Origin: a bacterium
GTDB lineage: Bacteria > Cyanobacteriota > Vampirovibrionia > Gastranaerophilales > JBAXKC01
Direction of reading: 5' to 3'
Assembly (NCBI GenBank): GCA_037137535.1
Contig: JBAXKC010000033.1
Coordinates: 1-26,835, forward strand
Length of the DNA stretch: 26,835 bases
Shown: positions 9,577 through 26,835 of the stretch, piece by piece
Layout of the letters: every line of letters starts with the position of its first letter
How positions within the stretch are numbered: the first letter of the stretch is position 1
Made by a program: the position numbers and the translations under genes
Notes under the pieces: generated by a model
Seen by the model: only the letters and a program-made list of their open reading frames with translations
Told to the model about the DNA's origin: nothing
The model's database searches: none

Positions 9577-9631
9577 ATTATTTTACTCGAGTTGCTAATT
9601 TCAAATATAAAAAACCCGCCCGCAACCACCC

Positions 9632-9844: not shown

Positions 9845-9972
9845 ATCAGGAAAGTTTGTTAAGCTCCCCCCCATAAGTGACAAAGATGGTACACCTCTTT
9901 TGCAATTCTATATATTTTAAACAATTTAAAACTTAATAATAATAAGACTTTTGATCATTTGAGGGATTCAAG

Positions 9973-10452: not shown

Positions 10453-10457
10453 CTTAT

Positions 10458-11072: not shown

Positions 11073-11120
11073 AAATACCTCACTATTACAGTTATACATG
11101 GATTATACTGTAAATTCCAT

Positions 11121-12527
11121 TTAATTCATAAATTGTGTCATTATCATAATTTTATTGGAATCATTAAGTGTTTGATTGTCAACATGAACTGCGTTTAGTT
11201 GAAGTCTTATATTGTTTTTATGCATGTAATAATTTAATCCTAATGTATATTCGGTTGATTTATCTTTAGTCTGGCTTTTATCAGGATCAAAAATATCATA
11301 TCTGCCTAATACCTGAAGTTTTTGAGGCATTAAATAGAATCCGCTTTGAACATAAAAACCATCTGCTTTTCTTGCGACTACATTAGAATAGCCTTTTTTT
11401 GTTTCGTATTCACCTCGTACAGAAAAACGGTTTTTAATGTATTCACCATATAAACTATTTATATTCGTATCAATTTCATTTTTTAGTACACTATTTGAAA
11501 CGTATGAATATTTACCATTATAATTACCACCACCAACTCTTAAATCACCAAGTTTTTTATAATTAGCAAAGGGTTTCAACACTAACCAACTAGCAAATCC
11601 TAATTTGCTATCATAATTATCATTAGTATTATCTTTATTACCATTAAAAGCACCCAAACTATAATCTAAGTATTTAAAAGTACCGTTCATTTTGATACCT
11701 AAATCTCTATAATTAGCAAAATTTCTAGAGATTTGTGACCTATTTATTGTATCTAATACAGTAATACCTAAAGCTCCTTCATATCCAATAGGTACACGAC
11801 TTTGTCCAATCATTAAGTCTTGCCCCGGATAAATGTTAGTTGAAAGTGTTGCATCGTCAATCATTCCCTTAGCGGTACTATTAAAGGTTCTTGATGGTGA
11901 AATACCTATCAGGTAATTTATATTAGATTTTTTCCCTGTTAACCTGTTGTTATAATCGCTTGCCTTACCGGAGAACCTTAAACCCACATACGGAAGACTA
12001 AAATTAGTAGCAGCACTTGAATTATTACGCTTAAAATCAAAGTCAAATCTATCTTGCATTATTACTTTTATAACATGATTACTACCAAAATCGGTTGTTA
12101 CACTGTTTTTGCAGGATGAATTAAGTTCTGAAACAGCACCTTGAAGAAAAGCTACTTTTTTCTCTGAGTTATCTACTGAATTTTTTAATTTATTTAATTC
12201 CTGATTAAGCTCTTGCTCTAATATTTCAAGTTCAGCTTTATCTGATTCAGTTAAACTCAATTTATTATCGTAAATTTTTTTCTGAATAATGGTAAGCATT
12301 ATTGCAGCATCATTCCTAGAAAACGCTTCATTCGGATTTGAAACCTTTAAATTAGCATTAGTTGCTATTTTATCAATATATTGAATTATCCATTTTTCAG
12401 CACTATTATTCGATTGTGCTAAAGAATCAACCTCCGTTGTAGAAGCGTAAGAACTCATTGTTATCGAAAAAACAGAAATAAGCGTCAAAAATGACAATGA
12501 TAATATTTTTCTATTAACCTTTTTCAT
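11121..12527 (-). CDS. Outer-membrane porin, OprO/OprP-like barrel with N-terminal SLH-like segment and coiled coil
   Basis: Signal peptide; W..QYIDKIA...PNEAFSRNDAA SLH-like segment; heptad region; GQSRVPIGYEG...INRS...RDLGI porin O/P motif; amphipathic beta strands. Confidence 0.75.
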   Translation of the reverse strand: MKKVNRKILSLSFLTLISVFSITMSSYASTTEVDSLAQSNNSAEKWIIQYIDKIATNANLKVSNPNEAFSRNDAAIMLTIIQKKIYDNKLSLTESDKAELEILEQELNQELNKLKNSVDNSEKKVAFLQGAVSELNSSCKNSVTTDFGSNHVIKVIMQDRFDFDFKRNNSSAATNFSLPYVGLRFSGKASDYNNRLTGKKSNINYLIGISPSRTFNSTAKGMIDDATLSTNIYPGQDLMIGQSRVPIGYEGALGITVLDTINRSQISRNFANYRDLGIKMNGTFKYLDYSLGAFNGNKDNTNDNYDSKLGFASWLVLKPFANYKKLGDLRVGGGNYNGKYSYVSNSVLKNEIDTNINSLYGEYIKNRFSVRGEYETKKGYSNVVARKADGFYVQSGFYLMPQKLQVLGRYDIFDPDKSQTKDKSTEYTLGLNYYMHKNNIRLQLNAVHVDNQTLNDSNKIMIMTQFMN

Positions 12528-12602
12528 TTAAATCCTAATTTTTTATCTTATATTAAATCTATTATAAAATAAGAAAAAAATAATAAAAAGAGAAAAGAGG
12601 TA

Positions 12603-12631: not shown

Positions 12632-12645
12632 AAATACATAGAAAT

Positions 12646-12736
12646 GGAGAGGTGGCCGAGTCGGTCGAAGGCGGCTTCCTGCTAAGAAGTTGTGTGGTCA
12701 AAAGCTGCACCGTGGGTTCGAATCCCACCCTCTCCG
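12646..12736 (+). tRNA. tRNA-Ser(GCT)
   Basis: GGAGAGG/CCTCTCC acceptor stem, anticodon arm GCTTC-CT GCT AA-GAAGT, long variable arm, GTTCGAATC T-loop. CCA not encoded. Confidence 0.97.
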
Positions 12737-12756
12737 TTTTTTTATTGATTATAATT

Positions 12757-12833
12757 GCGCTGGTAGCTCAGTTGGATAGAGTGTTTGGCTACGAACCAAA
12801 AGGTCGGGGGTTCGAATCCCTTCCGGCGCGCCA
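12757..12833 (+). tRNA. tRNA-Arg(ACG)
   Basis: GCGCTGG/CCGGCGC acceptor stem, anticodon arm TTTGG-CT ACG AA-CCAAA, GTTCGAATC, encoded CCA; 77 nt. Confidence 0.97.
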
Positions 12834-12876: not shown

Positions 12877-12909
12877 AGTGTAGTTTATCTGGTAATTTTG
12901 GTTGTATTG

Positions 12910-13593
12910 CTGTAATTTATCTGGCAGTTCTGGTCAAAATGCAGAAAAAATAAATAGGCTTTAATCCCTAACGTGTCTATAATACAGGCATGTTTTTTTA
13001 GTTCTGGTCAAAATGCAGAAATTGCCGATTTTCTGCATAAATGGTACTGGTCAAAATGAAGATTTTCTTTAAAGAATATGCCTTAAACCTAAACCACAAG
13101 GGAGTTACACCCTGTTTGCAAGAAAGTGGCAATTTTTTCCAACCGGGAAGAACTCGGAATTAACCTGGAAGCCTTTTTGAAAATTTATCAAATAGTTTCG
13201 GTCAAAATGAAACTTCCTTGTTTTAATCAATGTTTAAGATACTTTTAACCTCTGTAATTTATCTGGCAGTTCTGGTCAAAATGCAGAAAAAATAAATAGG
13301 CTTTAATCCCTAACGTGTCTATAATACAGGCATGTTTTTTTAGTTCTGGTCAAAATGCAGAAATTGCCGATTTTCTGCATAAATGGTACTGGTCAAAATG
13401 AAGATTTTCTTTAAAGAATATGCCTTAAACCTAAACCACAAGGGAGTTACACCCTGTTTGCAAGAAAGTGGCAATTTTTTCCAACCGGGAAGAACTCGGA
13501 ATTAACCTGGAAGCCTTTTTGAAAATTTATCAAATAGTTTCGGTCAAAATGAAACTTCCTTGTTTTAATCAATGTTTAAGATACTTTTAACCT
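12910..13593 (+). repeat. Exact 342-bp direct tandem duplication (12910-13251 and 13252-13593)
   Basis: Both copies run from CTGTAATTTATCTGGCAG to GATACTTTTAACCT and were identical on base-by-base reading. Confidence 0.95.
12932..13551 (+). repeat. Eight GGTCAAAATG motifs (four per 342-bp unit); candidate transposase-binding end sites
   Basis: Motif at 12932, 13006, 13049, 13200 and again +342. The first two extend to an identical 22-mer AGTTCTGGTCAAAATGCAGAAA. Function is inferred. Confidence 0.7.
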
Positions 13594-13758
13594 CCTTTAA
13601 AAATGTTTGTTTTGTCATTTTATTGTATTTATTGAAACTATCTTCTTCAGATTCTTCAATTAAAAATATTGAATAAAATTATTGTAAATTCAGTTCCAAT
13701 ATTCTAACTCCAAGGTAAAATGCTGTTCGGTAATAGAATAACAGGAGCTAAAAACCTT

Positions 13759-14157
13759 ATGACACAATTAAAAGAAGTATTTAAAACAAGAGAAGAAGTT
13801 TGTTTATGGCTTGAAAAACACAAAACCACACTTGAAGAAAAAGTTGGTTTTAGGATGCAGTTTACCAGCGTAGTTGAACTTGGAATCCTTGCAGAGATAG
13901 AAAATTCTAAAGATTTAAAGATTATCAGTATCCCCGATTTTGAATTATCAAATGAAACTCTTGAAACAGTAGAAGGATTTATTAGGGGTGAAATCGGTGG
14001 CGATAAGTATATAGGAACAATAATCCTCGCAGGAAGTATAAATCCAAAACTTGATAAATACTTATCGAAAATTAAATATATTTCAAAAATATTCAGAGCT
14101 TACATTTTAGAAATAGAAAACGATAAGCCTGTATTTAAAGAATATGAAGTGTTATAA
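13759..14157 (+). CDS. Hypothetical protein, possibly a degenerate restriction-endonuclease-like fold
   Basis: ORF with AGGAG RBS before ATG 13759 and its own terminator. LKEVF...WLEKH...LEEKVG weakly resembles the N-terminus of DUF4268/NucS-like nucleases. Confidence 0.65.
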   Translation: MTQLKEVFKTREEVCLWLEKHKTTLEEKVGFRMQFTSVVELGILAEIENSKDLKIISIPDFELSNETLETVEGFIRGEIGGDKYIGTIILAGSINPKLDKYLSKIKYISKIFRAYILEIENDKPVFKEYEVL

Positions 14158-14174
14158 ATTAAATAAAGACCAAT

Positions 14175-14202
14175 AGCTCGAGAGAAATCTCGGGCTTTTT
14201 TT
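14175..14202 (+). terminator. Intrinsic terminator
   Basis: AGCTCGAGA-gaaa-TCTCGGGCT followed by a T run. Confidence 0.85.
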
Positions 14203-14295
14203 ATTGATTCAAAACGGACACAAAAGGCGGAACATATCACCCATTCTGCGAAATACCCTTTATTATGTCAATGACGCATTAAACGAGGTGTTTTT

Positions 14296-16296
14296 ATGAA
14301 GGAAGCCTGGCTTGACCTGAAAACGGTAGCCGAGATAAAGGAAATAACCACAAGAGCCCTGCGATTAGCCATTCAAAAGGGTAAGTACAAAACAAGAGAA
14401 ACAATAACTCAAGGAGGAAAAAGCTTTGAAATTCTTTTATCTTCCCTTGAGCCAAAAGTTCAAGATGTGTATAAAAATACATATTATCAGGAAGTCTTAG
14501 AATTAGAAAAACAAATAATTCCCATAACCAAACTTGAACCAAACAACGAAAACTTTATTCCTGATAGTGCTAAAAAGATTGCCCTTGCAAGATTAGACCT
14601 TCTTAATGAATGGCAAAGTTTTAGAATAAAATACAAGCCTAAACAAGCAGGCGATAAGCTTTTTCTTGATTTATACAACTCGGGTGAATATCTAAAAACC
14701 ATATATGAGCTTCTCGGAAGAACTTCGAGAGGCTCTTTGTTAAGGTGGAATAAACTTTACACGGATTATGAAAGCTGGGAAGCCCTTGCTCCTCAGTATA
14801 AATACTCAGGGTTTCAAGAATACCGAACAGTATTAGCAGAAGAACAGATTGCAATATTTTTAAAACTGCTCCTGCATCCAAATCAGTTCAATATCGGTAA
14901 AGCAATAAAACTTTCTACTCACATACTTGAAAGACGAGGCTCTGAGAATATTCCAAAGCCCATCACATTCAGGCGTTATGCAGAATGGTTTAAAAAGAAT
15001 AATTACGATAAATGGATTTTAATGAGAGAAGGAGAAAAAAGTTTAGTCGATAAAATTTCTCCATATATAAAGAGGGATATTTCAAAACTTGCTGTCGGAG
15101 ATGTAATTATAGCAGACGGACACGTTTTAAACTTCCTTTTAATTAACCCGTTTACGGGTAAACCAGTCAGAGCAACACTTGTCGGTTTCCTTGACTGGAA
15201 ATCAGGCTACTTGGTCGGGTATGAAATAATGATGCAGGAAAATACACAATGCATCGCTGCCGCACTAAGAATGGCAATAATAACGATGGATATGCTTCCG
15301 AAAATCGTTTATCAGGATAACGGCAGGGCTTTTAAAGCTAAATATTTCAGCCAATCCGCTGACTTTAGCGAAGCAGGTTTTAACGGAATATATGAAAACT
15401 TAGGAATAAAGCCCGTTTACGCTAGACCCTACAATGCTAAAGCAAAAGTCATCGAAAGGTTTTTTAAAGAATTTCAAGAAGAGTTTGAAAAACTTGTTCC
15501 AAGCTACAGCGGAAGCTCAATAGAAATGAAACCAGCTCATTTAAAAAGAAACGAAAAATTCCATAAAGAGCTTCATAACAAGGTAAATAAAGGATACGTT
15601 CCTACAATAGAAGAAGCAATTAAATTAATAAATGCGTGGCTTGATTTCAGACACTCTCAACCCTGCCCGAATGATAAAAGCAGAAGTATTAAAGATGTTT
15701 TTGACAGCAGGGAAAAACAAAATATCGATAAAAATAAACTTGATGACCTGATGTTGGCTTATGAAGTCAAAACAATTCACCGTAACGGAATAAGGTTCTT
15801 AAATTTTGATTATTACCACGATAACCTTTATGGACTAAGAGATAGAGTAATGATTAAATACAGCCTGTTTGACCTGACTAAAATCAAGGTTTATTCAACA
15901 AAAGGCGAATATATTTGCACCGCAAAAAGAATAACAGGAACTCACCCTATGGCTTATCATCTCGGTGAGATTAAAGATATGGAAGACTTTAAACAGAAAA
16001 TTCAAAAACAAAAGAAATTTAAGAATAAAACTTTAAAAGCCGTTAAAAAATATCTGCCGAAAGAGGATATTAAATTCCTTGAAGTACAGATGGACAGTGA
16101 ATATTTGGAATCAACACCAGATGTGGAAATAAAAAACGAACCACTAATGATAGAAACTCAAATAAAACCTGTATTTATGAATAATTATGAAAGGTATGAA
16201 TGGTTTATAAAAAATGGATGCTCAACGTCTGAAGACAGGCAATGGCTAGCTAATTACAAACAAAGTGATGAGTATAAATTAATTTATGAGGATTAA
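14296..16296 (+). CDS. Mu/TnsB-like DDE transposase 1
   Basis: N-terminal HTH; catalytic IIADGH, YQDNGRAF, KVIERFF; Mu-transposase C-terminal NGIRF...Y...V.IKY; GAGGTG RBS. Confidence 0.92.
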   Translation: MKEAWLDLKTVAEIKEITTRALRLAIQKGKYKTRETITQGGKSFEILLSSLEPKVQDVYKNTYYQEVLELEKQIIPITKLEPNNENFIPDSAKKIALARLDLLNEWQSFRIKYKPKQAGDKLFLDLYNSGEYLKTIYELLGRTSRGSLLRWNKLYTDYESWEALAPQYKYSGFQEYRTVLAEEQIAIFLKLLLHPNQFNIGKAIKLSTHILERRGSENIPKPITFRRYAEWFKKNNYDKWILMREGEKSLVDKISPYIKRDISKLAVGDVIIADGHVLNFLLINPFTGKPVRATLVGFLDWKSGYLVGYEIMMQENTQCIAAALRMAIITMDMLPKIVYQDNGRAFKAKYFSQSADFSEAGFNGIYENLGIKPVYARPYNAKAKVIERFFKEFQEEFEKLVPSYSGSSIEMKPAHLKRNEKFHKELHNKVNKGYVPTIEEAIKLINAWLDFRHSQPCPNDKSRSIKDVFDSREKQNIDKNKLDDLMLAYEVKTIHRNGIRFLNFDYYHDNLYGLRDRVMIKYSLFDLTKIKVYSTKGEYICTAKRITGTHPMAYHLGEIKDMEDFKQKIQKQKKFKNKTLKAVKKYLPKEDIKFLEVQMDSEYLESTPDVEIKNEPLMIETQIKPVFMNNYERYEWFIKNGCSTSEDRQWLANYKQSDEYKLIYED

Positions 16297-16299
16297 AAA

Positions 16300-17007
16300 A
16301 TGAAAAAAACATTTGTAAGAACTCAAAACGTGAAAAACTTTATTTCACTGATGAATTCTATTCAAAACAAACCAGATGGTGTGCCACGAATGGCTTTAGT
16401 CTACGGAGAGCCAGGGCTTGGTAAATCAAGAACAGCTCTGTGGTGGGCTGTTAAAAACGATGCGGTGTATTTAAGAAGTTCAAATATGATGTCAGGAAGA
16501 TGGTTTTTAGAGGAATTAATAGAAGAATTGGGTGAAAGCCCCCTGCATAAATCATCTGATATATTTAATCAGGTTGTAAATCAGCTAATAGATTGCCCAC
16601 GAACAATTATTGTTGATGAAATAGATTATCTGCTTGCTGATTCAAAGGCGATTGAAACATTGAGAGATATTTACGACAGAACAAATGTACCGATTATTTT
16701 AATAGGAATGGGCAAAGCAAATAAAAAGTTTTCAAGATTTAGACATATTTATGACAGATTTTCAGAAATTCTAAAGTTTGAAAGCTTTGATTTTAATGAA
16801 GTCAGCAAGATTATTGAAGAATTGTCAGAAGCCCAAATGGAGGAATCGGCAGTAAAACTGATATTTAATCAGGCAAACAGATTCAGGCAAATTGTAAGCG
16901 TTATATCTAAAGCTGAAAAACTCTCTAAATCAAACTCTAATCTGCTAATAACAGCGGAAATACTTCAATCGGCGATTAAAGATATTATCGAGGATAAAAA
17001 GTTATGA
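16300..17007 (+). CDS. AAA+ ATPase 1 (TnsC/MuB-like, AAA_22), no N-terminal HTH
   Basis: Walker A GEPGLGKS, Walker B IIVDEID, LRDIYD...PIILIGM; 3 bp after transposase 1. Confidence 0.92.
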   Translation: MKKTFVRTQNVKNFISLMNSIQNKPDGVPRMALVYGEPGLGKSRTALWWAVKNDAVYLRSSNMMSGRWFLEELIEELGESPLHKSSDIFNQVVNQLIDCPRTIIVDEIDYLLADSKAIETLRDIYDRTNVPIILIGMGKANKKFSRFRHIYDRFSEILKFESFDFNEVSKIIEELSEAQMEESAVKLIFNQANRFRQIVSVISKAEKLSKSNSNLLITAEILQSAIKDIIEDKKL

Positions 17008-17873
17008 AAAATCAAATATTAAAAGCGGCAAAGGGCTTGCGGACATTTACCATTGAAGATTTAGAACTTGTAACAGGTTTTGAAGAAAGCGAGATACTTG
17101 AAGTTATTCAAGAAAATAATCTTAAATTTAATAACGGAGTTTATTCTTTTCAAGATTTTAAAGAGCAAAAAAATAAAAAGAAAACAGTAAAAAAAGTTGG
17201 CAAAACAATTCTTTTTAAAACCTTTGCCGATAAATATATTAAAAAACTAACCTGTAAAGAATCGACTAAACAAAGCTATGAGATATATTTAAGACTTCAC
17301 CTCTTACCAATATTCGCCCAAAAAAGAATAATAGATATTGATAAAAATGATATTGAAACTTTTAAAAAGTTAAAACTTAAAGAAGGGTTGTCTAATAAAA
17401 GTATTAATAACTTTATTACTCTGCTTTACGGCATATTTGAATGTGCTTTAAATGAAGATTTATTCTTGAAAAATCCTTGTCAGAAAATAGAAAAACTTAA
17501 AACAGAATCTAAAAAACAAAACATATCGCAGGTACAACTGAATAATCTTCTGAACCTGGCTAAAGAAAAGGATTTTTCTTTTTATCTTATGCTTAAAACA
17601 GCAGTTGAAACAGGTTTATCAAGAGGACAGGTTCTTAGTTTAAAGTGGTGCGATATTGATGGCTCTAAAGTTCTTGATAAAACTATTTCTTTAGATTTAA
17701 TGTGTGAATTAAACAAGTGGCATAAAATTTGTCCGATATATTCTAAAAATCTGATTTTTCCTAACAAGAACGGAAACGAAATTCATGCGGATAATATGAT
17801 AAAACGAAAATTCAAACCCCTTGTTAAAGCTGCAGGGCTTGAATCTTTACGGTTTTTAGATTTAAAACTTTAA
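17004..17873 (+). CDS. Catalytically inactive tyrosine-recombinase-like protein with N-terminal winged-helix-like extension
   Basis: Integrase core-binding domain (STKQSYEIYLRLHLLP...LSNKSINN...NPC). Box I reads TGLSRGQ and box II LRFLDLK, then stop; no catalytic Tyr. ATGA overlap with ATPase 1. Confidence 0.85.
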   Translation: MKNQILKAAKGLRTFTIEDLELVTGFEESEILEVIQENNLKFNNGVYSFQDFKEQKNKKKTVKKVGKTILFKTFADKYIKKLTCKESTKQSYEIYLRLHLLPIFAQKRIIDIDKNDIETFKKLKLKEGLSNKSINNFITLLYGIFECALNEDLFLKNPCQKIEKLKTESKKQNISQVQLNNLLNLAKEKDFSFYLMLKTAVETGLSRGQVLSLKWCDIDGSKVLDKTISLDLMCELNKWHKICPIYSKNLIFPNKNGNEIHADNMIKRKFKPLVKAAGLESLRFLDLKL

Positions 17874-17878
17874 TGTTT

Positions 17879-18574
17879 TTACTCCTGCGGAAGTTTTTTC
17901 CCTTGCCAAACAACTTTGCCGATAACTGCAATACCTGATTCTTCATGAATATCAACTGTAAAAGTGCTGTATTCTGGGTTATCGCTCTTAACTTGTAATT
18001 TATTGCCCGGTCTAAGCTCAAGTCTTTTTACAACAAGCGTATCGTCAAATCTTACAACGAATATTCCATCTTTAATAACTATATTAGAGGTGTCAACCAT
18101 AATGAGATCACCATCTTTAATAGTTGGTTCCATCGATTCGCCTTTTACTTCAAGTATTATAAGGCTATTTTTAGGAGCAAGAATATTTTTATTAAACCAT
18201 TGTTTTTCAAATGGATAATGACCGATTACGGCTTCATTATCTATTATGCAGCCCGAACCTGCGGCAGTTTTTCCGTAATAAATAGGAATATATGTAATAT
18301 TTTCAGGATAAACATTTATTCCTGAATCGTCAGCTAAGAACATAGTACCTTTTCCAGCCACTATATATTCAAGATTTGCTGCTAAATTCTCGTACAATAA
18401 AGTTAAATATTCAACAGATGCTTGTCTTTCGCCCCTTTCATAATTACTTATGGTTTTAGGAGCGATATTTATCATTTTGCTTAATTCATCAATAGTAAGA
18501 GCTGATTGAAGTCTAATATTCCTCAATCTTAGTCCTATTTCTTTTAATACTGTTTGATTTAACTCTTTGCCCAT
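17879..18574 (-). CDS. Prophage repressor, XRE HTH + S24 autopeptidase (CI/LexA-like)
   Basis: IGLRLRNIR...TISNYERGER HTH; AAG cleavage site; VKGESMEPTI (Ser) and VVKRL (Lys). Confidence 0.93.
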   Translation of the reverse strand: MGKELNQTVLKEIGLRLRNIRLQSALTIDELSKMINIAPKTISNYERGERQASVEYLTLLYENLAANLEYIVAGKGTMFLADDSGINVYPENITYIPIYYGKTAAGSGCIIDNEAVIGHYPFEKQWFNKNILAPKNSLIILEVKGESMEPTIKDGDLIMVDTSNIVIKDGIFVVRFDDTLVVKRLELRPGNKLQVKSDNPEYSTFTVDIHEESGIAVIGKVVWQGKKLPQE

Positions 18575-18592
18575 ATTTTACTTTCTTAATGA

Positions 18593-18674
18593 AATTTAAC
18601 CATATGTTCTTATTTATTGACAATAAGCCCAAATGGTAATAATATAATTTTATTAATACCCGAATGGTAATAAT
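18593..18674. promoter_or_regulatory. Lysis/lysogeny switch: early promoter with 2-3 operator-like repeats
   Basis: TTGACA (18617-18622), 17 bp, TAATAT (18640-18645). CCC(A/G)AATGGTAATAAT at 18628 and 18659; weaker inverted copy at 18593-18615. Confidence 0.7.
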
Positions 18675-18704
18675 GAGTAGCTGTGTATAAAGAATATACC
18701 ATAA

Positions 18705-18893
18705 ATGAGCAAAATAACTAGAGTCAAATGGTTCAAAATAAAACTTTTATGTCGAAAACTTAGCATTGAAGAAGTAGCTAAGGAGCTTAATATTACAAAA
18801 AAAGAATTAATTTTACTCATTAAAGATAAAAAACAAGACTCATATTTTACCAAATGGGTAGTAGAAAACCTGGGCAAGCCTTACTGGCTGTAA
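18705..18893 (+). CDS. Small HTH regulator (Ner/Cro-like)
   Basis: 62 aa with LSIEEVAKELNITKKELILLI helix-turn-helix; divergent from the repressor and first gene of the early operon. Confidence 0.75.
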   Translation: MSKITRVKWFKIKLLCRKLSIEEVAKELNITKKELILLIKDKKQDSYFTKWVVENLGKPYWL

Positions 18894-18909
18894 TTTAAGG
18901 ACAGAACAA

Positions 18910-20895
18910 ATGAGCGGAGTGGAAATAATAAAGAATAATCCTGTGTGGATTGATGAAAATCAAGCCTCCTCTTTGCTTGGACTAAAAATTGAAACTCTAA
19001 GAAAAAACTGTGCTACAGGTAAATATATTTTTGAAAAAATGAAAAATAATGGTGAAAAAGTTGAGTATAGAATACTTTTAAGCTGTTTACCCGAACGTTT
19101 TCAAAATAAATATCATCAATTTAATTCCACGAATGAAACAACTTTTGACCTCGATATAGATATCATGCTTTATAATAAAGCTCCTAATTGGGCTAAAAAA
19201 CAAGCAGATAAATATATTGTAATTCTTACTAATTCCAGAGGATTAAAAGGCAGAGAATTAAGAAAATTTGTTGAAGAATGGAATTGCCAAAATCCTGATT
19301 TTAAAACTTCTTATTCCGCTATTAATGAATCTCGCTTAAGGTACGAGAACGGCGGAACCTCTGCTCTGCTTGCTCAATATGGTAAAACAGCAGGAGCATC
19401 AAAAATAGAGGATAAATATTTTGAATATTTTAAAAACCTTTATCTTGTAGAAGGGGCTCCCTCTGTTTACTCCTGCTGGCTTATAACTCTTGGCTATGCA
19501 ATGAGAGAAGAAGGACTTACAAAAGAACAATTCCCTAAACATTTAAGTTTTAAAAGAAGATTAGAACGTGAAATTCCTACATCTTCAATATATTTAGCAA
19601 GATACGGATACTCAAAATGGAATAAAAAGTTCGCAAACTATGTTGAAAGAGACTATTCTGCCATTAGATGTGGCTCTGTTTGGGTAGCTGACCATGCTCA
19701 AATAGACATAGCCTGTGAAAACCTTGATGGAAAAGTTAGTTATCCCTGGGTTACTGCTTGGCGTTGTTTTAAATCAGGCAAATGGCTTGGCTGGATATTA
19801 CAGCCTAATAATCCAAACTCAGACCATATATTTCAATCATTCTATTATTCGGCAAGTGAATACGGAATTCCTGACGACGTGATTATAGATAATGGCAGAG
19901 ATTTTAGAGCAAAAGATTTCGCCGGCGGAAGAAAATATATTAAAATAAATGCGGACGAACCCTCAACAACTGCAATGCTTGGAAAACTGGGAGTTATTCC
20001 ACATTTTGCACTTCCGTATAATGCTCAAACTAAACCTATTGAAAGAGATTTCCTTAAAATTAAAGAGCTTTTATCAAAGCACGCTGTCGGATATAGAGGC
20101 GGAAACGTTACAGAACGCCCTGAAAAACTTAAAAAAGAAATAGCACAGGGCAAAATATTAAAATTTGAAGAATTTAAAGAAATCTTTGACGATTTTATTG
20201 TCAATGTATTTAATAAAATGAATTCTAACGGTAAAAATCACAAAGGCAAATCCCCTGATGAACTCTTTGCCCTTGAATTTACCGAAAAAAGAGTTGTTTC
20301 AAAAGATGCTTTAATCCTTTTCTGTAAAAGAACTTCAAGAGAATTAACCATTACTCAAAACGGAGTAAGAGATTCCGAACTTGAAATTACATACTGGGCT
20401 GATTGGATGCTCGGTGTTAAAGGCGAAAAAGCATATTTAAGACGTGATGCAAAAAATTATAACGAAGCCTGGATATTTAAAGCTTCTAATGATGAATTAT
20501 TAGGAACGGCATATGTAAAAGAACTTGCTCCTGCATTAGCTAAAGAGCCTGTTTCAAAGGACAGGTTCAAAGAATTTATCTGCGATAAAAAACGTGGAAG
20601 AAAAATTGAAAAAGCTTACTCTCAAAATGAAGAAGTTGAGCTTAATGAAAAAATACTCAATTATAAAACTGTTTTAGGCGATAAAGAATATCTTCTGAAT
20701 CCTAAAATAAATAAAATAGCCAATACTGCTATGGATAAAGCAGTCAGAAAACAAAAAAACAACGAGAAAATAGGGACTCACGATTTATCAATATTCCTTG
20801 AAGAACCGCAAAAAGAACAAAAGCTTTATTTGTTTGAAAGCGACAGGGAAATTGAAAAAGCAGAGCAGGAGTATTTAACAAATTATGGATATTAG
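18910..20895 (+). CDS. MuA-like DDE transposase 2
   Basis: N-terminal HTH; WVADHAQID, IIDNGRDF, KPIERDF triad; canonical c-ner-A-B position. Confidence 0.92.
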   Translation: MSGVEIIKNNPVWIDENQASSLLGLKIETLRKNCATGKYIFEKMKNNGEKVEYRILLSCLPERFQNKYHQFNSTNETTFDLDIDIMLYNKAPNWAKKQADKYIVILTNSRGLKGRELRKFVEEWNCQNPDFKTSYSAINESRLRYENGGTSALLAQYGKTAGASKIEDKYFEYFKNLYLVEGAPSVYSCWLITLGYAMREEGLTKEQFPKHLSFKRRLEREIPTSSIYLARYGYSKWNKKFANYVERDYSAIRCGSVWVADHAQIDIACENLDGKVSYPWVTAWRCFKSGKWLGWILQPNNPNSDHIFQSFYYSASEYGIPDDVIIDNGRDFRAKDFAGGRKYIKINADEPSTTAMLGKLGVIPHFALPYNAQTKPIERDFLKIKELLSKHAVGYRGGNVTERPEKLKKEIAQGKILKFEEFKEIFDDFIVNVFNKMNSNGKNHKGKSPDELFALEFTEKRVVSKDALILFCKRTSRELTITQNGVRDSELEITYWADWMLGVKGEKAYLRRDAKNYNEAWIFKASNDELLGTAYVKELAPALAKEPVSKDRFKEFICDKKRGRKIEKAYSQNEEVELNEKILNYKTVLGDKEYLLNPKINKIANTAMDKAVRKQKNNEKIGTHDLSIFLEEPQKEQKLYLFESDREIEKAEQEYLTNYGY

Positions 20896-21760
20896 AGACG
20901 AATTAAAAATCCTTATGGCTGAAAAGAAATACAGCTTCCAAGCTGTTGCCCGTTCAACCGCCTTATCCCCAACCACTCTTAATATGTGGGTGAATGGCAG
21001 CTATAATGGGAACTCTGAGAAAATAGCAGATATTGTAAATAACTTTATTACTAGAGAAAAAGAAAAATCTCACAAAAAAACAATCCCGTTTGTTGAAACA
21101 TCAATTGCAATGCGAGTTTTTGAGATTGCAAGAATGTGTCATATAAACAGTGAAATAGGTGTTTGCTACGGCTCGGCAGGACTCGGTAAAACCGTTGCAG
21201 CTAAAGAATATACAAAGAATTATCATGATTCAATTCTTATTGAAACTGACCCGGGGTTTAACACTAAAACACTACTCATAGAACTTCATAAAAGGCTTGG
21301 GCTGTCGGCTAAAGGCAATATTTATACTATGACTGATGAAATAATACAAAAAGTCCAAAACTCAGGCAGACTAGTTATTATTGATGAAGCTGAAAACCTT
21401 CCGCATAAAGCTCTTGAGCTCGTAAGAAGAATTCACGATAAAACAGAAATCGGAATCTTGTTAATAGGAATGCCTGCTCTTGTTGAAAACTTAAGAGGCG
21501 AGAAAAACCAGTATGAACAGCTTTATTCAAGAGTTGGTGTTTCTAAAAAACTAGAAAAATTAAATATTAATGATGTAGGGCTTATTCTTGAAACCTTAAA
21601 ACAAGAGAAAAACCTTGCTCTGCCTTATCTTGAACACTCAAAAGGAAATACAAGAGTATTGTCAAAACTGATAAAAAGAGCACCAAGAGTTGCACAGATA
21701 AATAACACAACTGTTTCAACTGCTGTAATAGAAAAAACGTCAAGAATGTTAATAGTATAG
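20885..21760 (+). CDS. MuB-like transposition ATPase 2 with N-terminal HTH
   Basis: SFQAVARSTALSPTTLNMWVNGSY HTH; Walker A GSAGLGKT; Walker B IIDEAE; QLYSRVG arginine finger. Confidence 0.93.
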   Translation: MDIRDELKILMAEKKYSFQAVARSTALSPTTLNMWVNGSYNGNSEKIADIVNNFITREKEKSHKKTIPFVETSIAMRVFEIARMCHINSEIGVCYGSAGLGKTVAAKEYTKNYHDSILIETDPGFNTKTLLIELHKRLGLSAKGNIYTMTDEIIQKVQNSGRLVIIDEAENLPHKALELVRRIHDKTEIGILLIGMPALVENLRGEKNQYEQLYSRVGVSKKLEKLNINDVGLILETLKQEKNLALPYLEHSKGNTRVLSKLIKRAPRVAQINNTTVSTAVIEKTSRMLIV

Positions 21761-21767
21761 GTGATTT

Positions 21768-21899
21768 ATGAGGAATTTTGAAAAAATCGGAATGCTGATT
21801 CTAATAGGTTTGATATTATTCACTTTTGGAATTCAGATTGGTATAAAACATGGTCGTGACTTAGAAAAACAAGAAATTATGGAGGTTTATGGCAACTAG
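21768..21899 (+). CDS. Small single-TM protein (43 aa; not in ORF track)
   Basis: MRNFEKIGMLILIGLILFTFGIQIGIKHGRDLEKQEIMEVYGN; AGGTG RBS; fills the MuB-gemA gap and overlaps the gemA start. Confidence 0.7.
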   Translation: MRNFEKIGMLILIGLILFTFGIQIGIKHGRDLEKQEIMEVYGN

Positions 21900-22317
21900 A
21901 TATGAAATACAAAAGATTCACATGCTTAAAAATGCTTTGAATCTTGATGATGATCTTTACAGAGAAATATTAAACAATTATGGTGCCGAATCCTGTAAAG
22001 AAATACCGCCTCATCTAACAGATGAATTCATCAAATATCTCGAACAAATGGCAATAGAATCAGGCAAATGGAACTTAAAACCAAAAAAGTTTGATGAACT
22101 TGCAAACAGACCTGATATGGCATCACCTAAACAATTAAGGTTAATCGACTATCTATGGAAAATAATATGTGAAAGAAGGGAGAAAGATAATAACTCATTA
22201 AGAAAATTTCTTTATGTAAAATTCAAAGTAAGTGACTTAAGGTTTATCAGCCGAAAGACAGCAAATAAAGTAATAAACGCACTTAAAAATATTGATAGTA
22301 ATTATATTAACGTCTAA
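21889..22317 (+). CDS. gemA: GemA / Mu gp16-family protein (DUF1018)
   Basis: IQKIH..KNALNLDDDLYREIL...SCKE...KQLRLIDYLW...LRKF...ANKVINALK; GGAGG RBS. Confidence 0.85.
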   Translation: MATRYEIQKIHMLKNALNLDDDLYREILNNYGAESCKEIPPHLTDEFIKYLEQMAIESGKWNLKPKKFDELANRPDMASPKQLRLIDYLWKIICERREKDNNSLRKFLYVKFKVSDLRFISRKTANKVINALKNIDSNYINV

Positions 22318-22333
22318 AAAAAGGAGAAACCCA

Positions 22334-22558
22334 ATGGAAATTAAAGACAGAATTACAGGAATTATTTCAAATCAAATTAATGATATTAATGACGAGTTAT
22401 CAGTAACTAAAATCAAGTATGCAGATTTATGTTTAAAAGATGAAGATTGGCATATTAAAGTTAAATTTGAGAAAAAATGTAGAATTCTTGAAGGGCAAAT
22501 AGAAGTATTAGAGCGTATGGCTCAAAATATTGAAGATATATTTGTTCTGGCAGCGTAA
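22334..22558 (+). CDS. Hypothetical helical phage protein (74 aa)
   Basis: AGGAG RBS before ATG 22334 (MEIKDRITG...); lies in the early operon. Confidence 0.7.
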   Translation: MEIKDRITGIISNQINDINDELSVTKIKYADLCLKDEDWHIKVKFEKKCRILEGQIEVLERMAQNIEDIFVLAA

Positions 22559-22559
22559 A

Positions 22560-22611
22560 AGTCGAAACGGGATTTATCCCGTCATATCGTGATGCGGTAT
22601 CTGATGAGACT
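22560..22611 (+). ncRNA. Type II hammerhead ribozyme
   Basis: AGUC (stem II)-GAAA-CGGGA uuua UCCCG (stem III)-UC cleavage site-AUAUCG ugaug CGGUAU (stem I)-CUGAUGA-GACU (stem II). All core nucleotides present; intergenic. Confidence 0.92.
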
Positions 22612-22625
22612 GAGAGGAATCAATA

Positions 22626-22901
22626 ATGAGCGATAAAATATGGCTCGATGACCTTGAAAAGAAACATATTCCTAATGAAGAATTAAGACTTGTTGCTGAA
22701 TACTGCGGATTGAAAGTAGTAGCAGAACTTCTTAAATCTATGCCTGGAGTTGTAATCTATGTCCCAAATCGAGATATTGTTGAATTAAGAGATCAGTATA
22801 TCAGGCAAAAATATGATGGGACAAAAATATCAATGATGGAGCTCGCAAGAGAATTAAGACTATCTGAAAAAACTATTTCTAGCATAATAAAAAAAAAGTA
22901 A
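22626..22901 (+). CDS. mor: Mor/C-family transcription activator
   Basis: LLKSMPGVVIYVP...RDQYIRQKYDG...ELARELRLSEKTISSII; downstream of gemA as in transposable phages. Confidence 0.85.
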   Translation: MSDKIWLDDLEKKHIPNEELRLVAEYCGLKVVAELLKSMPGVVIYVPNRDIVELRDQYIRQKYDGTKISMMELARELRLSEKTISSIIKKK

Positions 22902-22916
22902 CCACTCCAACCTCTT

Positions 22917-22944
22917 ATCAAGGCATCTGCCTTGATTTTTTTTT
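22917..22944 (+). terminator. Intrinsic terminator after mor
   Basis: ATCAAGGC-atct-GCCTTGAT followed by T8. Confidence 0.85.
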
Positions 22945-22986
22945 GATATACTAATTTTGTTTGAATATTAAATAAGGGAATTTCTA

Positions 22987-23262
22987 ATGAATAAAGAAGA
23001 ATTAGTACAAAAAGTAGCAGCTACAACTAACAGCACCCAAAAAGAAGCAGCTGAAATTATCACTGCAACAGTAAATGCTATTACTGAAGCAGTTGCAGCA
23101 GGCGAAAAAGTTACATTAGTCGGATTCGGAACTTTTGAAGCTAAAAAACGTGCTGCTAGAAATGGACGTAATCCTCAAACAGGTGAAACCATTGAAATAT
23201 CAGCTAAAACCGTACCAACCTTTACTGCAGGCAAAGCGTTTAAAGATAGTACAAATAAATAG
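22987..23262 (+). CDS. hup: HU-family DNA-binding protein (prophage-borne)
   Basis: MNKEELV...GEKVTLVGFGTFE...RNGRNPQTGETIEI...P.FTAGKAFKD. Confidence 0.95.
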   Translation: MNKEELVQKVAATTNSTQKEAAEIITATVNAITEAVAAGEKVTLVGFGTFEAKKRAARNGRNPQTGETIEISAKTVPTFTAGKAFKDSTNK

Positions 23263-23276
23263 ATTTTAAAACAACT

Positions 23277-23312
23277 AAAAAATACCGAGATACGCAAATC
23301 TCGGTATTTTTT
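23277..23312. terminator. Bidirectional intrinsic terminator between convergent operons
   Basis: A6-TACCGAGAT-acgcaa-ATCTCGGTA-T6. Confidence 0.9.
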
Positions 23313-23324
23313 GTGTATAGGTTT

Positions 23325-23486
23325 TTAAATGCTTGATAAATCCCCATAATCGGTAATATACATCTGACATTTATTATTTACCACGACAACACGTTTAAAC
23401 ATTGAAGCAGGCAGTTCATAGACATCAAGCACAATTACTTCTTCTTTTTTCTCTTCATTAAAAACTTTATCGCCAAATTCTAACAT
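23325..23486 (-). CDS. Small hypothetical beta-rich protein (53 aa; not in ORF track)
   Basis: MLEFGDKVFNEEKKEEVIVLDVYELPASMFKRVVVVNNKCQMYITDYGDLSSI; AAGGA RBS. Confidence 0.7.
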   Translation of the reverse strand: MLEFGDKVFNEEKKEEVIVLDVYELPASMFKRVVVVNNKCQMYITDYGDLSSI

Positions 23487-23502
23487 GTTTTTTATCCTTT
23501 CA

Positions 23503-23712
23503 CTAAATGGCTACGGGCTTCCAGCCGCATTCTTTTTCGATATAGGCAATTACTTTATTAATATCATTACCAAATTCTTTTTTAGCTTTTTCAAGTTCTT
23601 CGCCTACCGATTCACTGCAGTATAAGTCATATGCCAGTTCAAAAAGTGCTGATTCGGTTGTTATGTAATCTGGTTCTATTAGCCATGTGTCAATCATTTT
23701 ATATGTTTTCAT
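23503..23712 (-). CDS. Small hypothetical protein
   Basis: MKTYKMIDTW... start at 23712 after GAGGG; tightly packed with neighbours. Confidence 0.65.
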   Translation of the reverse strand: MKTYKMIDTWLIEPDYITTESALFELAYDLYCSESVGEELEKAKKEFGNDINKVIAYIEKECGWKPVAI

Positions 23713-23714
23713 TT

Positions 23715-23906
23715 TTATCCCTCTACATCTTCCTGCCACATTAGAATTTCAGGGTATAAATCACCGCTAGTCTCATCGTTACTGTATTCTATTTCTGCGA
23801 TTTCACCGATTGCAATGCCACCGATGGCTTTTATTGCGACACCATATTTTTTTGAAAGTTTAGCTAATTCTTTTGTAAATTTTTCAAATCTTTGTTGTTC
23901 GTTCAT
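23715..23906 (-). CDS. Small hypothetical protein (63 aa)
   Basis: MNEQQRFEKFTKELAKLSKKYGVAIKAIGG...; AAGGA RBS; 2-bp gaps to both neighbours. Confidence 0.7.
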   Translation of the reverse strand: MNEQQRFEKFTKELAKLSKKYGVAIKAIGGIAIGEIAEIEYSNDETSGDLYPEILMWQEDVEG

Positions 23907-23908
23907 TT

Positions 23909-24076
23909 CTATTTTCCTTTTTTTACTGATTCTTGCCCTGCTTTATATGCCAGTTCTAAAGCTTCTTTGATATCCCATACTGAATGCTCTTTAAAATCAA
24001 GATGGTCACTGCTTCTGGGTTCAAGCGTTTCAAGGTCTAATATTTCTTTAGCTATCTTTAAAAGTTTTTTATTCAT
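23909..24076 (-). CDS. DUF6900-like small phage protein (55 aa; not in ORF track)
   Basis: MNKKLLKIAKEILDLETLEPRSSDHLDFKEHSVWDIKEALELAYKAGQESVKKGK matches the IA...ETLE.R.SD.LDF....VW....ALE.AY.AG pattern; AGGAG RBS. Confidence 0.8.
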   Translation of the reverse strand: MNKKLLKIAKEILDLETLEPRSSDHLDFKEHSVWDIKEALELAYKAGQESVKKGK

Positions 24077-24158
24077 TTTTAGCTCCTGTATTATCTACAA
24101 TGACAGATTACCTTGACAATCTCACAATGTGTCATCAATGGCGGAAGCTTGAAACAAT

Positions 24159-24479
24159 TCAACACAATATTTTTTCCGTTAATTCTTTTAATTTTTTAAT
24201 ATCGTCTTTAAATTCCTTTTCAGCAGATGTTGGGCTGTTTCTGTATTCGAGGTTATATGCCAGGTTATTAGAAGTTTTCATTATTGAATGGGGTATTGAG
24301 TAAATAATATTCCACTCATCATTTTTTAGAACCGATGCCTTTGCGTAGCATTGGTTTTCGTAAGAATCTGACTTTATATCAATTTTAATTTTCTTATCTT
24401 GAAGGATATAAATTTCCCTGTAGGAAATAGATTGGGAGTTTGATTTGTAGCATATTTTTTCTAATAATTGTGCCTTCAT
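24159..24479 (-). CDS. Hypothetical protein (106 aa)
   Basis: ORF with AAGGA RBS directly following the 86-aa gene. Confidence 0.65.
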   Translation of the reverse strand: MKAQLLEKICYKSNSQSISYREIYILQDKKIKIDIKSDSYENQCYAKASVLKNDEWNIIYSIPHSIMKTSNNLAYNLEYRNSPTSAEKEFKDDIKKLKELTEKILC

Positions 24480-24493
24480 TCTCTTTTCCTTTA

Positions 24494-24754
24494 TTAATCT
24501 ATTAAAAAACTTGCAGGGATATTTAAGGCTTTAAAATCTTTTTCGGTTAAATCCCCATAAAGGCGAGCCTGTTTAATTTCAGCTATCGGCATCAGGTTAT
24601 CGAGGTTTGTTGCGTATAATTTGCCGTTTGTGTCGACTACCTTAGCCCCTGTGGCATCAGCTGCGTCAACATAGCCGAGGTTGTAAGTATTAATTAATAT
24701 TCCGATACTTTGTCTTTTATAATCGTAAACCTTTGTTCCGTATGCGATATCCAT
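24494..24754 (-). CDS. Hypothetical beta-rich protein (86 aa)
   Basis: AGGAG RBS; N-terminal half resembles the 53-aa protein at 23325-23486. Confidence 0.7.
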   Translation of the reverse strand: MDIAYGTKVYDYKRQSIGILINTYNLGYVDAADATGAKVVDTNGKLYATNLDNLMPIAEIKQARLYGDLTEKDFKALNIPASFLID

Positions 24755-24861
24755 TTTTTAACTCCTGTATTATTTGCTAACAATTACAGATTAGCTTGCA
24801 ACTCTCATAATGGAAGCCCATACTAGGAAGTATGAGCTCATTTCGTATCAATCGAACACAG

Positions 24862-25257
24862 TTATTTTTCCCAAGCCCAAGTCTTGATTTCAAAGTTTGC
24901 TCTTTCTCTAGTGTCAGTGTGAACGAATTTAGATTTATCGTATCTAATAACAGTAGAAAATAGCTTAGAGGCAACAGCTTCGGCGTATAAGACTTTGTAA
25001 TCCAAATCAGGTGAAGTAATGTCAAAGGCGATACCTAGCAGATGCTCGCTGTTTACAACTCCACCGACTTCTTTATTATGCTTAGGGCAACGAGTTGAGC
25101 AGTTTACGGTTATTCTGATATTTTTTATATATTTATTTTGCAGATAATATTTAAAAGCTTGAATACTAATAACGGCTTTATCATTAACGATTAATTTTCC
25201 GCAGCATCTGCAGGATAGTTCTTTTTCTGTAAAATTTTCAAGATTTGCCTTAATCAT
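24862..25257 (-). CDS. Peptidase M15A-type endolysin
   Basis: NFT.KEL.CRCCG...RCPKHNKEVGGV.NSEHLLG.AFDI...FVHTDTR Zn-peptidase motifs. Confidence 0.9.
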   Translation of the reverse strand: MIKANLENFTEKELSCRCCGKLIVNDKAVISIQAFKYYLQNKYIKNIRITVNCSTRCPKHNKEVGGVVNSEHLLGIAFDITSPDLDYKVLYAEAVASKLFSTVIRYDKSKFVHTDTRERANFEIKTWAWEK

Positions 25258-25289
25258 GTTTTTTCTCCTAAATCTAATTTAAACGTTGT

Positions 25290-25697: not shown

Positions 25698-25711
25698 TTT
25701 ATATCTCCTTA

Positions 25712-26781: not shown

Positions 26782-26835
26782 TGACCTGCCCCCGTTTTTC
26801 CTAACGATTAGAACTTAGTACTCCACGAGTTTCTA
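26782..26835. mobile_element. Terminal inverted repeat of an IS3-family (IS407-group-like) element, running off the window
   Basis: Begins TGACCTGCCCCCGTTTTTCC, the TGACCTGCCCCC end typical of this group, exactly where tail-collar similarity breaks. Confidence 0.7.

Follow-up and report, generated by a model that had tools for sequence, protein, structure and literature searches.

Why would a single Mu-like prophage carry two complete transposase/ATPase pairs, one on either side of its repressor gene? The question is raised by contig C33 of a Gastranaerophilales genome (labeled G000; 2.95 Mb, 81 contigs, 31% G+C), the whole of which, 26,835 base pairs (bp), is the window analyzed here. Host-like genes fill positions 1-12,600 (encoding an RTX-repeat protein, a GAF histidine kinase, and a porin) and phage DNA runs from 12879 onward, positions 12879-26782 being the left ~14 kb of a ~36-kb Mu-like myovirus prophage. 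Its two pairs, A1-B1 and A2-B2, are separated by the gene of a tyrosine recombinase-like protein (Int'), the repressor gene c, and a ner-like gene. The answer favored here, at a probability of roughly 0.55, is that A1/B1 and a selector protein would form a Tn7-like homing module (module 1) and that c-ner-A2-B2 would form a Mu-type lytic module (module 2).

Relatives of G000 are denoted by G-numbers and the loci fetched from them by L-numbers. The order-level search covered 60 relatives within the same order and the window's own genome (61 genomes; cut-off for A2-type genes E <= 1e-30). A second set consisted of the best 79 loci, out of at least 561 found in a scan with an A1 profile, that come from named genomes; it shares its species collection with the 61-genome set, so that the two sets overlap and their counts are not additive. 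A scan of IMG/VR contributed 80 A2-type loci, for which an A2-only call needed at least 5 kb of upstream sequence. Nearly all relatives reached with the A1 profile are labeled Candidatus Gastranaerophilales or Melainabacteria, and the public runs that contain the window are freshwater and lake metagenomes.

Two intact transposase/ATPase pairs

The features on which the analysis turns are listed below (protein lengths in amino acids, aa; HTH, helix-turn-helix).

12645-12737, + strand: tRNA-Ser(GCT), identified by ARAGORN, the first of a tRNA pair upstream of the element
12757-12833, + strand: tRNA-Arg(ACG), identified by ARAGORN, on the same strand as A1, the presumed homing target
12879-12910, + strand: 32-bp degenerate left-terminus copy (TGTAGTTTATCTGG...), sharing 73% identity with those at 12911 and 13253
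12910-13594, + strand: left-end region of two perfect tandem units of 342/343 bp, each beginning TGTAATTTATCTGGCAG and containing four GGTCAAAATG(C/A)A repeats
14296-16296, + strand: A1, MuA-type DDE transposase, 666 aa (D274, D341, E387)
16300-17007, + strand: B1, MuB/TnsC-type AAA+ ATPase, 235 aa
17004-17873, + strand: Int', 289 aa, with a winged helix (residues 1-50), a tyrosine-recombinase core-binding domain (70-165), and a truncated catalytic domain; the proposed selector
17879-18574, - strand: c repressor with HTH and S24 peptidase domains, convergent with Int'
18705-18893, + strand: ner-like small early gene, conserved in position and 39-68% identical in relatives
18910-20895, + strand: A2, MuA-type DDE transposase, 661 aa, with Mu I-gamma and DDE_2 domains (D261, D327, E378)
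20885-21760, + strand: B2, MuB-type ATPase, 291 aa, with an N-terminal HTH

A first-pass annotation, made from the letters of the window, had described two intact DDE transposases of ~660 aa and two Walker ATPases, and the open reading frames (ORFs), triads, and motifs bear this out. The PHROG family phrog_310 (Mu transposase) is matched full-length by both A1 (2e-93, 315 bits) and A2 (1e-70, 240 bits), and phrog_296 is matched by both B1 and B2. The triad of A1 (D274/D341/E387) is invariant in 19 out of 19 aligned homologs and that of A2 (D261/D327/E378) in 13 out of 13. In B1 the Walker A residues G39-L40-G41-K42 and the Walker B residues D106-E107 are invariant (47/47); B2 carries GLGKT and IIDE motifs as well as the N-terminal HTH that B1 lacks. 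The two pairs are distant from each other, with 24% identity between A1 and A2 (E 4e-17) and 25% between B1 and B2. Used as a single sequence, A1 gave no sequence match in the PDB, but a profile of 19 homologs matched the Mu transposase (4fcy, positions 122-583, E 6e-10), with TnsB next. A2 matches the structures of TnsB and of the MuA core, and the B1 profile matches VchTnsC (3.5e-9) and MuB (8xvb, 2e-8) about equally. Every record of the phage collection that was matched by A1 (249) or A2 (32) contains a single matching place, and among the matches listed the identity of A1 or A2 to any phage transposase is at most 32%.

The ratio of nonsynonymous to synonymous substitution rates (dN/dS) between two element copies of one relative, G016:C1 and G016:C2, is 0.067 for A1, 0.046 for A2, and 0.050 for B2. 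The B1 pairs give 0.085-0.168, and for more distant pairs, whose synonymous sites are nearly saturated, the values are 0.07-0.23. Judged by these ratios, both transposase/ATPase pairs are under purifying selection. The two modules abut closely in the window: bases 17874-17878 exactly separate the convergent stops of Int' and c, which is the 5-bp gap noted at first pass.

The two modules recur together

Among the 61 genomes, A1-type genes are present in 45 and A2-type genes in 14. The gene order of the window is found in other genomes as well: in 15 out of 20 A2-type loci A1 and/or B1 lies directly upstream on the same strand (A1-B1-(post-B1 gene)-[c]-ner-A2-B2, where the post-B1 gene is Int' in the window), and the order recurs on six IMG/VR contigs. 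The 15 dual loci, the window's included, are spread over 10 genomes, seven genera, and five families, and their identity to the window is 49-77% for A1 and 51-83% for A2. Three of the remaining loci are A2-only (G020:C79 along with G043:C93 and G004:C280, which are more distant at 43% identity) and two end too early to judge (G000:C81 and G058:C14). The 80 IMG/VR loci comprise the six dual loci, 21 A2-only loci (all with A2 at <= 46% identity), 52 that are not assessable, and one in which no A2 was callable. Close relatives in IMG/VR (A2 at >= 54% identity and enough upstream sequence) are dual in six out of six cases, and the distant A2-type phages of this database have c beside A2 and no A1.

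The two G016 copies, which occupy tRNA-Met and tRNA-Arg(TCT) sites and are 87-93% identical over 36.4 and 34.7 kb, are collinear from a point ~450 bp upstream of A1 until beyond the Mu G-like gene, except for a swapped segment made up of the 3' part of B1 and the post-B1 gene. Module 1 had been placed inside the prophage at first pass and the collinearity agrees: on this evidence it belongs to the same mobile unit as module 2, and chance nesting of the two modules is excluded as far as gene order can tell.

The host genome itself contains parts of a further element. Contig C70 carries copies of orf145 (an ORF between the left end and A1) and of A1 (86% amino acid identity), and contig C81 carries copies of ner and A2 (76%), the latter cut by an insertion sequence (IS) at residue 504. 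The two contigs break at window positions 16024 and 18822, where identity rises to 95-97%, and in the likely source run the unitig depth is 74-76 over 16.5-19.0 kb versus 30-35 on either side. Because of the doubled depth and the position of the breaks, C70 and C81 are read as the arms of a second dual copy with a near-identical middle (A1 C-terminus, B1, Int', c, and ner). This middle suggests that the selector/immunity segment recently passed between prophages by recombination or gene conversion.

Two other arrangements were observed among the fetched loci. L024 (G012:C79, 3900-18200) consists of two elements head to head whose A1 starts are ~1 kb apart with no tRNA between them, one of them A1-only (A1-B1-Int'-Mor) and the other dual. 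At L027 (G032:C13, 8664-9898), a group-2 dual locus, a selector-like ORF, a ner-like ORF, and A2 follow one another in one direction with no divergent c. The remaining group-2 dual loci yielded no c in a tblastn search with the window c (E 1e-4).

Placement next to tRNA genes

A tRNA gene on the same strand lies within 4 kb upstream of A1 in 43 out of 64 eligible loci and within 1 kb in 29 out of 68, whereas an opposite-strand tRNA within 4 kb upstream was seen in none of 64 loci and any tRNA within 4 kb downstream in none of 47 eligible loci. A cluster of 12 loci has 403-429 bp between the end of the tRNA and the start of A1, and the loci whose tRNA lies within 1 kb cover 19 tRNA species. As a control, a same-strand tRNA within 2 kb upstream was found in 1 out of 21 A2-only viral loci. 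Among the 15 dual loci the tRNA lies within 1.5 kb of A1 in nine and at 2.7 and 4.9 kb in two, and the contig ends in one. Insertion is strongly biased to the 3' flanks of tRNA genes, in one orientation. The left ends, as located by homology breaks and shared sequence, start ~40-180 bp after the tRNA; in the window the element begins 46 bp after the 3' end of tRNA-Arg(ACG).

The end-like DNA placed at 12879-13593 by the first-pass annotation is real and spans 12879-13594. Its tandem units occupy 12910-13252 and 13252-13594, the terminus-like sequence TGTA(A/G)TTTATCTGG occurs three times (at 12879, 12911, and 13253), and GGTCAAAATG(C/A)A is present in four same-strand copies per unit. The G016 elements have the same left-end layout as a single unit. 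The degenerate 32-bp terminus is possibly the relic of an earlier insertion at the same site. Three candidate left termini thus stand in a row behind the tRNA, and they may have been left by repeated insertions at a single homing site or by duplication of the end.

Where A1 is farther from the tRNA, cargo sits between the end repeats and A1, a slot that seems to accept cargo (orf145 in the window). An element downstream of tRNA-Phe (G015b, on G015:C1) has a gene of ~650 aa (~2 kb) between its left-end repeats and A1, at ~6200-8180 in element orientation; its end repeats still start ~100 bp after the tRNA-Phe gene.

A non-catalytic recombinase family follows B1

Some gene follows B1 in nearly all loci. 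In the window it is that of Int', whose start overlaps the B1 stop (ATGA). The structural model of Int' (predicted local distance difference test score, pLDDT, 88.7) shows a winged helix, a core-binding domain of four helices, and a catalytic domain that is incomplete. Among known structures it matches lambda integrase best (E 4.6e-7), the Tn1549 integrase is also among the best, and phi3T SroF bound to DNA (9rd5, E 2.8e-4) appears among the fold matches, weaker than the true integrases. In Int' the first catalytic Arg is replaced by S, and the chain stops short of the second Arg, the His, and the Tyr; the protein was called a dead recombinase at first pass, and with the first Arg replaced and the C-terminal catalytic residues absent it is, as far as its residues tell, catalytically inactive. 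A search of the genome contigs with the single Int' protein found no relative.

The truncation had been treated as an oddity of the window locus, a view that does not hold for the family. Most of its members are shorter still: 48 out of 61 complete post-B1 ORFs are 160-199 aa long (a winged helix and a core-binding domain, no catalytic domain) and 4 out of 61 are 320-379 aa long. Of eight longer forms, seven have K, S, or T at the first Arg position, and N, D, K, or V stands at the first His; the 331-363-aa forms retain the second Arg and the Tyr. Because most homologs are non-catalytic and shorter, Int' with its 289 aa is taken to be an intermediate form of a conserved non-catalytic protein and not a product of damage at the junction with c. 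Across all post-B1 forms the initial ~50 residues are conserved, and the DNA-binding part that follows is highly variable. The conserved N-terminus is also found in post-B1 ORFs with an unrelated remainder (G016:C2, 226 aa; G032, 224 aa; and G019).

A predicted complex of B1 with residues 1-60 of Int' scored 0.59, compared with 0.03 for the best of three controls, which weakly supports a contact between them. The score passes a mark that is reached by 116 out of 157 solved complexes and by 2 out of 215 mismatched pairs, and scores that pass it at <= 0.60 comprise only 18 of the 157 solved complexes and both of the passing mismatches. Between runs, at least 83% of contacts agree, and the partner pLDDT is at least 73.

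In a number of loci (L025, 9396-9824; L035-L041; L051; and L058) an ORF that follows B1 is similar to the MuA-type DNA-binding region of A2 (residues 88-231). Such ORFs may represent another class of selector or a Mu-style repressor.

The post-B1 protein changes with the target tRNA

Co-variation was analyzed in the 25 loci where a tRNA lies within 1 kb and where A1, B1, and the post-B1 gene were called, using pairs of loci with A1 at least 88% identical. The mean identities of pairs at the same tRNA (n = 9) are 92.1% for A1, 91.9% for B1, and 89.1% for the post-B1 protein, and those of pairs at different tRNAs (n = 76) are 91.5%, 89.0%, and 52.9%, the pairs being non-independent. The two G016 copies, which sit at different tRNAs, are 93% identical in A1 and 96% in A2, 50% identical in B1, and have unrelated C-terminal parts in their post-B1 proteins. 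In these comparisons the component that differs along with the target tRNA is the post-B1 protein.

When the tRNA labels are placed on the tree, 20 changes are needed versus a mean of 25.4 after shuffling (0 out of 300 shuffles gave <= 20). A generic tRNA feature such as the T-arm was considered as the target and is weakened by element clades that keep one tRNA species across hosts; recognition of specific tRNAs is therefore favored, although related elements have labels in common. Of the division of labor suggested at first pass, with module 1 for site-specific integration and module 2 for replicative transposition, the part that stands is the tie between module 1 and tRNA-adjacent placement. 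The existence of single-pair phages speaks against a strict split.

Right end and empty sites

The left end starts with TG and carries four direct repeats; no inverted counterpart was found at the right ends searched, whose positions are approximate. Regular expressions, short-word BLAST, 12-mers with <= 2 mismatches, a DNA search with <= 3 mismatches, and repeat finding detected no inverted left-end repeats or terminus above the AT-rich background in G016:C1 and C2 (60 kb each), G015b (54 kb), G057, or G032. The right end and a 5-6-bp target duplication, which the first-pass annotation expected to exist, were not found in the searched relatives or in C35, the contig that continues the prophage. 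At L050 (G058:C6) a 24-nt inverted match links a position 360-380 bp after tRNA-Asp with one 7.4 kb downstream of the A1 start (E 3.6e-6); this locus is possibly a compact derivative in which both ends are visible.

The unoccupied site corresponding to the right flank of G016:C1 was not found in its family (3 genomes), and a small flank match on G016:C10 that was considered as an empty site looked spurious. None of the contigs of eight public runs bridges an empty site, joints with 21-24 letters on the short side being taken as noise.

Prophage anatomy outside the two modules

The remaining features of the window are the following.

2-1597: RTX calcium-binding repeat protein, a host gene that runs off the contig start
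5728-9576: histidine kinase, 1282 aa, with five GAF domains, a host gene flanking the prophage
13720-14157, + strand: orf145, between the left end and A1, with no family assignment
21889-22317, + strand: GemA
22292-22558, + strand: conserved 88-aa ORF
22626-22901, + strand: Mor late activator
22987-23262, + strand: HU-family DNA-binding protein, inside the prophage between Mor and the late block
23503-26692, - strand: start of the inverted late block, which continues on C35
within 23503-26692, - strand: four small conserved ORFs at the start of the late block
24862-25257, - strand: M15 endolysin
25290-25739, - strand: tail-fiber assembly protein
25712-26692, - strand: tail fiber
26782-26835: end of a multicopy IS, which interrupts the tail-fiber region and ends the contig

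The prophage extends over C33:12879-26782, then the IS, then C35:~52 to ~22,400. In the same orientation C35 encodes the baseplate, tape measure, sheath, head, terminase, portal, and MuF-like proteins up to the Mu G-like gene. The end of the IS reads TGACCTGCCCCCG..., and the same 52-55 bases are found at 13 other contig ends (C70, C81, C18, C5, C56, C31, C26, C24, C3, C78, C6, C67, and C34), with the opposite IS end at both ends of C35. Because the IS cuts the tail-fiber region, the window copy of the prophage has probably lost its viability. A complete set of Mu-like myovirus genes is present in the G016:C2 element.

The window contains Mu-type early control genes together with Mor and GemA, and the portal, MuF-like, and G-like head genes are found in G016:C2 and C35. 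By gene content and order, c-ner-A2-B2-GemA-Mor is a standard Mu early region; the ner-like ORF had no family match of its own in the family scans. The ORF orf145 has a 75%-identical copy on contig C70, is missing from most relatives, and is probably cargo or a regulator. The prophage HU protein is 60-64% identical to three chromosomal HU proteins (encoded on C1, C2, and C12). HU is required for Mu transposition, a need that makes a phage-borne copy suggestive.

Proposed mechanism and alternative explanations

In the mechanism favored here Int' would recognize a particular tRNA gene and recruit the B1 ATPase, and A1 would insert the phage a few tens of bases downstream of the tRNA in a fixed orientation. 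A1/B1 and the selector would in this way place an incoming genome at a safe site behind a tRNA gene, and the repressor-controlled A2/B2 operon would most likely drive replicative transposition after induction. Int' is read as a selector because the conserved N-terminus, the variable DNA-binding part, the co-variation with the tRNA, and the coupling to B1 resemble an AAA+-coupled target selector of the kind on which Tn7-like elements rely.

Several observations weigh against this mechanism. There are A1-only phages with homologous Mor and late genes (L030, L031, L087, and L088; Int of 363 aa) and there is an A2-only phage with the same late genes (G020:C79, where host-like genes with Pfam sugar-transferase and methyltransferase matches lie between the phage and the nearest tRNA genes); because such phages exist, each pair is apparently able to serve a phage alone and neither is indispensable. 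A1/B1 presumably also replicates the A1-only phages. In most members of the A1 family a small-terminase-like gene follows directly. Three of the 15 dual loci (G012:C79, G019:C32, and G040:C1) have no tRNA within ~6 kb upstream, and the variation of the tRNA-to-left-end distance (~40-180 bp) is unlike Tn7, which inserts at a fixed distance from its target. The co-variation, besides being drawn from non-independent pairs, has nine pairs with post-B1 proteins at least 75% identical at different tRNAs (four Leu(GAG)/Leu(CAG), three Thr/Leu, one Met/His, and one Tyr/Ile). The complex prediction lends weak support to the contact between B1 and Int', and the fold of Int' resembles phi3T SroF, presumably a recombinase-like repressor, so that Int' could be a regulator and not a selector. 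Finally, the last 5.6 kb of C35 contain no mirrored left-end repeat at <= 3 mismatches, no target-site duplication was recognized at the G016 junctions, and no mirrored repeats were found at any searched right end, so that the left-end repeats are candidate transposase sites only.

Some of these observations would follow if the dual phages were redundant mosaics, products of recombination between A1-type and A2-type phages that share late genes, in which a single pair suffices and its counterpart is carried along as a passenger. This is a possible explanation, held with clearly less confidence than the homing mechanism. It fits with the existence of A1-only, A2-only, and dual architectures that all have homologous Mor and late genes, with the exchange of the B1/post-B1 segment between otherwise near-identical elements, and with the lengths of the post-B1 proteins (289, 185, and 176 aa in the window and its closest dual relatives versus 363 aa in the nearest A1-only phages). 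A passenger would be expected to decay, however, whereas both pairs are intact with dN/dS of 0.05-0.07, and the dual order is kept in 15 loci of five families and in all six of the close assessable IMG/VR relatives. A separate and rather doubtful reading would have the two transposases act on one genome in a manner not known from any element, in an asymmetric or heteromeric transpososome, A1 working through B1 and the selector at the tRNA flank and the left-end repeats and A2 at the unmirrored right end, or with nested left ends used at different stages of the life cycle. It would explain both the absence of inverted repeats at the right end and the selection on both pairs. It is also unlikely that an A2-type Mu-like phage lies in, or was captured by, an A1-type tRNA-homing element, each with ends of its own. 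A1-B1-post-B1 is indeed far more widespread than A2 (45 versus 14 of the 61 genomes), the A1 module is linked to differing downstream gene sets, and the left-end repeats are not mirrored at the right end. Yet the window has only 5 bp between Int' and c, the selector, ner, and A2 of G032 are consecutive in one direction with no c between them, the position of the junction is identical in all dual loci, and the G016 copies are homologous throughout apart from the swapped B1/selector segment.

Two further explanations concern the post-B1 protein. The Int' family could consist of immunity or regulatory proteins that act like phi3T SroF on the left-end repeats, A1/B1 or another factor then targeting the tRNA. 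The SroF-DNA structure among the fold matches (9rd5, E 2.8e-4), the lack of a recognizable c repressor in the A1-only phages, and the hypervariability that is also typical of immunity proteins all point this way; but the variable part tracks the tRNA species at equal A1 and B1 identity, the gene is translationally coupled to B1, and the conserved N-terminus is weakly predicted to contact B1, all of which makes a regulator improbable. Hardly credible at all is an active integrase that uses site-specific recombination at tRNA genes, even though such genes are classic integrase targets and the second Arg and the Tyr survive in the 331-363-aa forms. The catalytic domain is absent in 48 out of 61 homologs, the first Arg is K/S/T in 7 out of 8 longer forms and the first His N/D/K/V, Int' ends before the Tyr, and the element starts downstream of the tRNA and not inside it.

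If the homing mechanism is true, a large family that homes to tRNA flanks would alter the near-random picture of transposable phages, and targeting by three proteins (MuA-like, MuB-like, and a small, modular selector derived from a recombinase) would provide a mechanistic link between Mu and Tn7. Retargeting seems to proceed by swapping the selector like a cassette, which would amount to a natural programmable insertion of very large DNA without TnsA, TniQ, or CRISPR. The dual-pair sub-lineage also allows a test of whether integration and replicative transposition are split between dedicated enzymes.

Comparison with known systems

Full-text literature searches, whose coverage leaves most subscription journals outside, returned no title or abstract on two-transposase transposable phages, Gastranaerophilales prophages, MuA/MuB with target selectors and tRNA, or Mu-like prophages behind tRNAs. 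Within the literature searched, and as far as the searches show, these are the first described prophages of the Gastranaerophilales/Melainabacteria.

The element resembles Mu, D3112, B3, BcepMu, and BalMu-1 in its MuA and MuB types and in its c/ner/A/B/GemA/Mor early region, and it shares with Mu-like phages the Mu-type portal, the MuF-like and G-like head genes, and the myovirus tail. It differs from them in having two A/B pairs instead of one. Near-random integration is the textbook property of transposable phages, and Mu inserts at near-random sites, whereas this family is placed adjacent to tRNA genes. Compared with Mu, the late block is inverted, and neither mirrored end repeats nor a 5-bp duplication was found. 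By gene content the element classifies as a Mu-like transposable phage, one that departs from near-random insertion. With phi3T SroF, by its PDB entry titles a tyrosine-recombinase-like repressor of that phage, Int' has in common a phage recombinase fold and, as proposed here, DNA binding without recombination. SroF is not known to be linked to a transposase/ATPase operon.

Scans of 12 ORFs (13720-23262) against Pfam and NCBIfam found no TnsA or TniQ family. The element would work like a Tn7-type homing element and yet, because it has no TnsA and no TniQ, would not be a member of the Tn7 family. CRISPR-associated transposons (I-B2, I-D, and V-K) are similar in inserting a few tens of bases downstream of a tRNA in a fixed orientation. 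They home by TnsD/TniQ or a guide RNA, whereas the window element has no TniQ, Cas, or CRISPR component, and the tRNA distance of its family (~40-180 bp) is more variable than theirs.

The retrieved passages of Faure et al. (2023; PMC10293859) report that CyCAST homes 30-33 nt downstream of a tRNA gene, and a figure legend of the same paper mentions loci with an additional tnsB-tnsC pair nearby; no phages of the dual-module kind are described in those passages. According to the same excerpts, the Tn6022 selector TnsF has a tyrosine-recombinase domain that is inactivated (PMC10293859). As described there, Tn6022/TnsF has a TnsB/MuA-like transposase, a TnsC/MuB-like ATPase, a selector derived from an inactivated tyrosine recombinase, and insertion in one orientation by a conserved gene, features that recur in the window family. 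The likeness of the selectors is drawn from their described features, and the selector of the window family, unlike TnsF, usually has no catalytic domain. Tn6022 targets comM according to these passages, and the window family targets one of many tRNA genes with a whole phage as its cargo. New here is the proposed combination of a Mu-like phage with selector-guided transposition, both of which are known separately.

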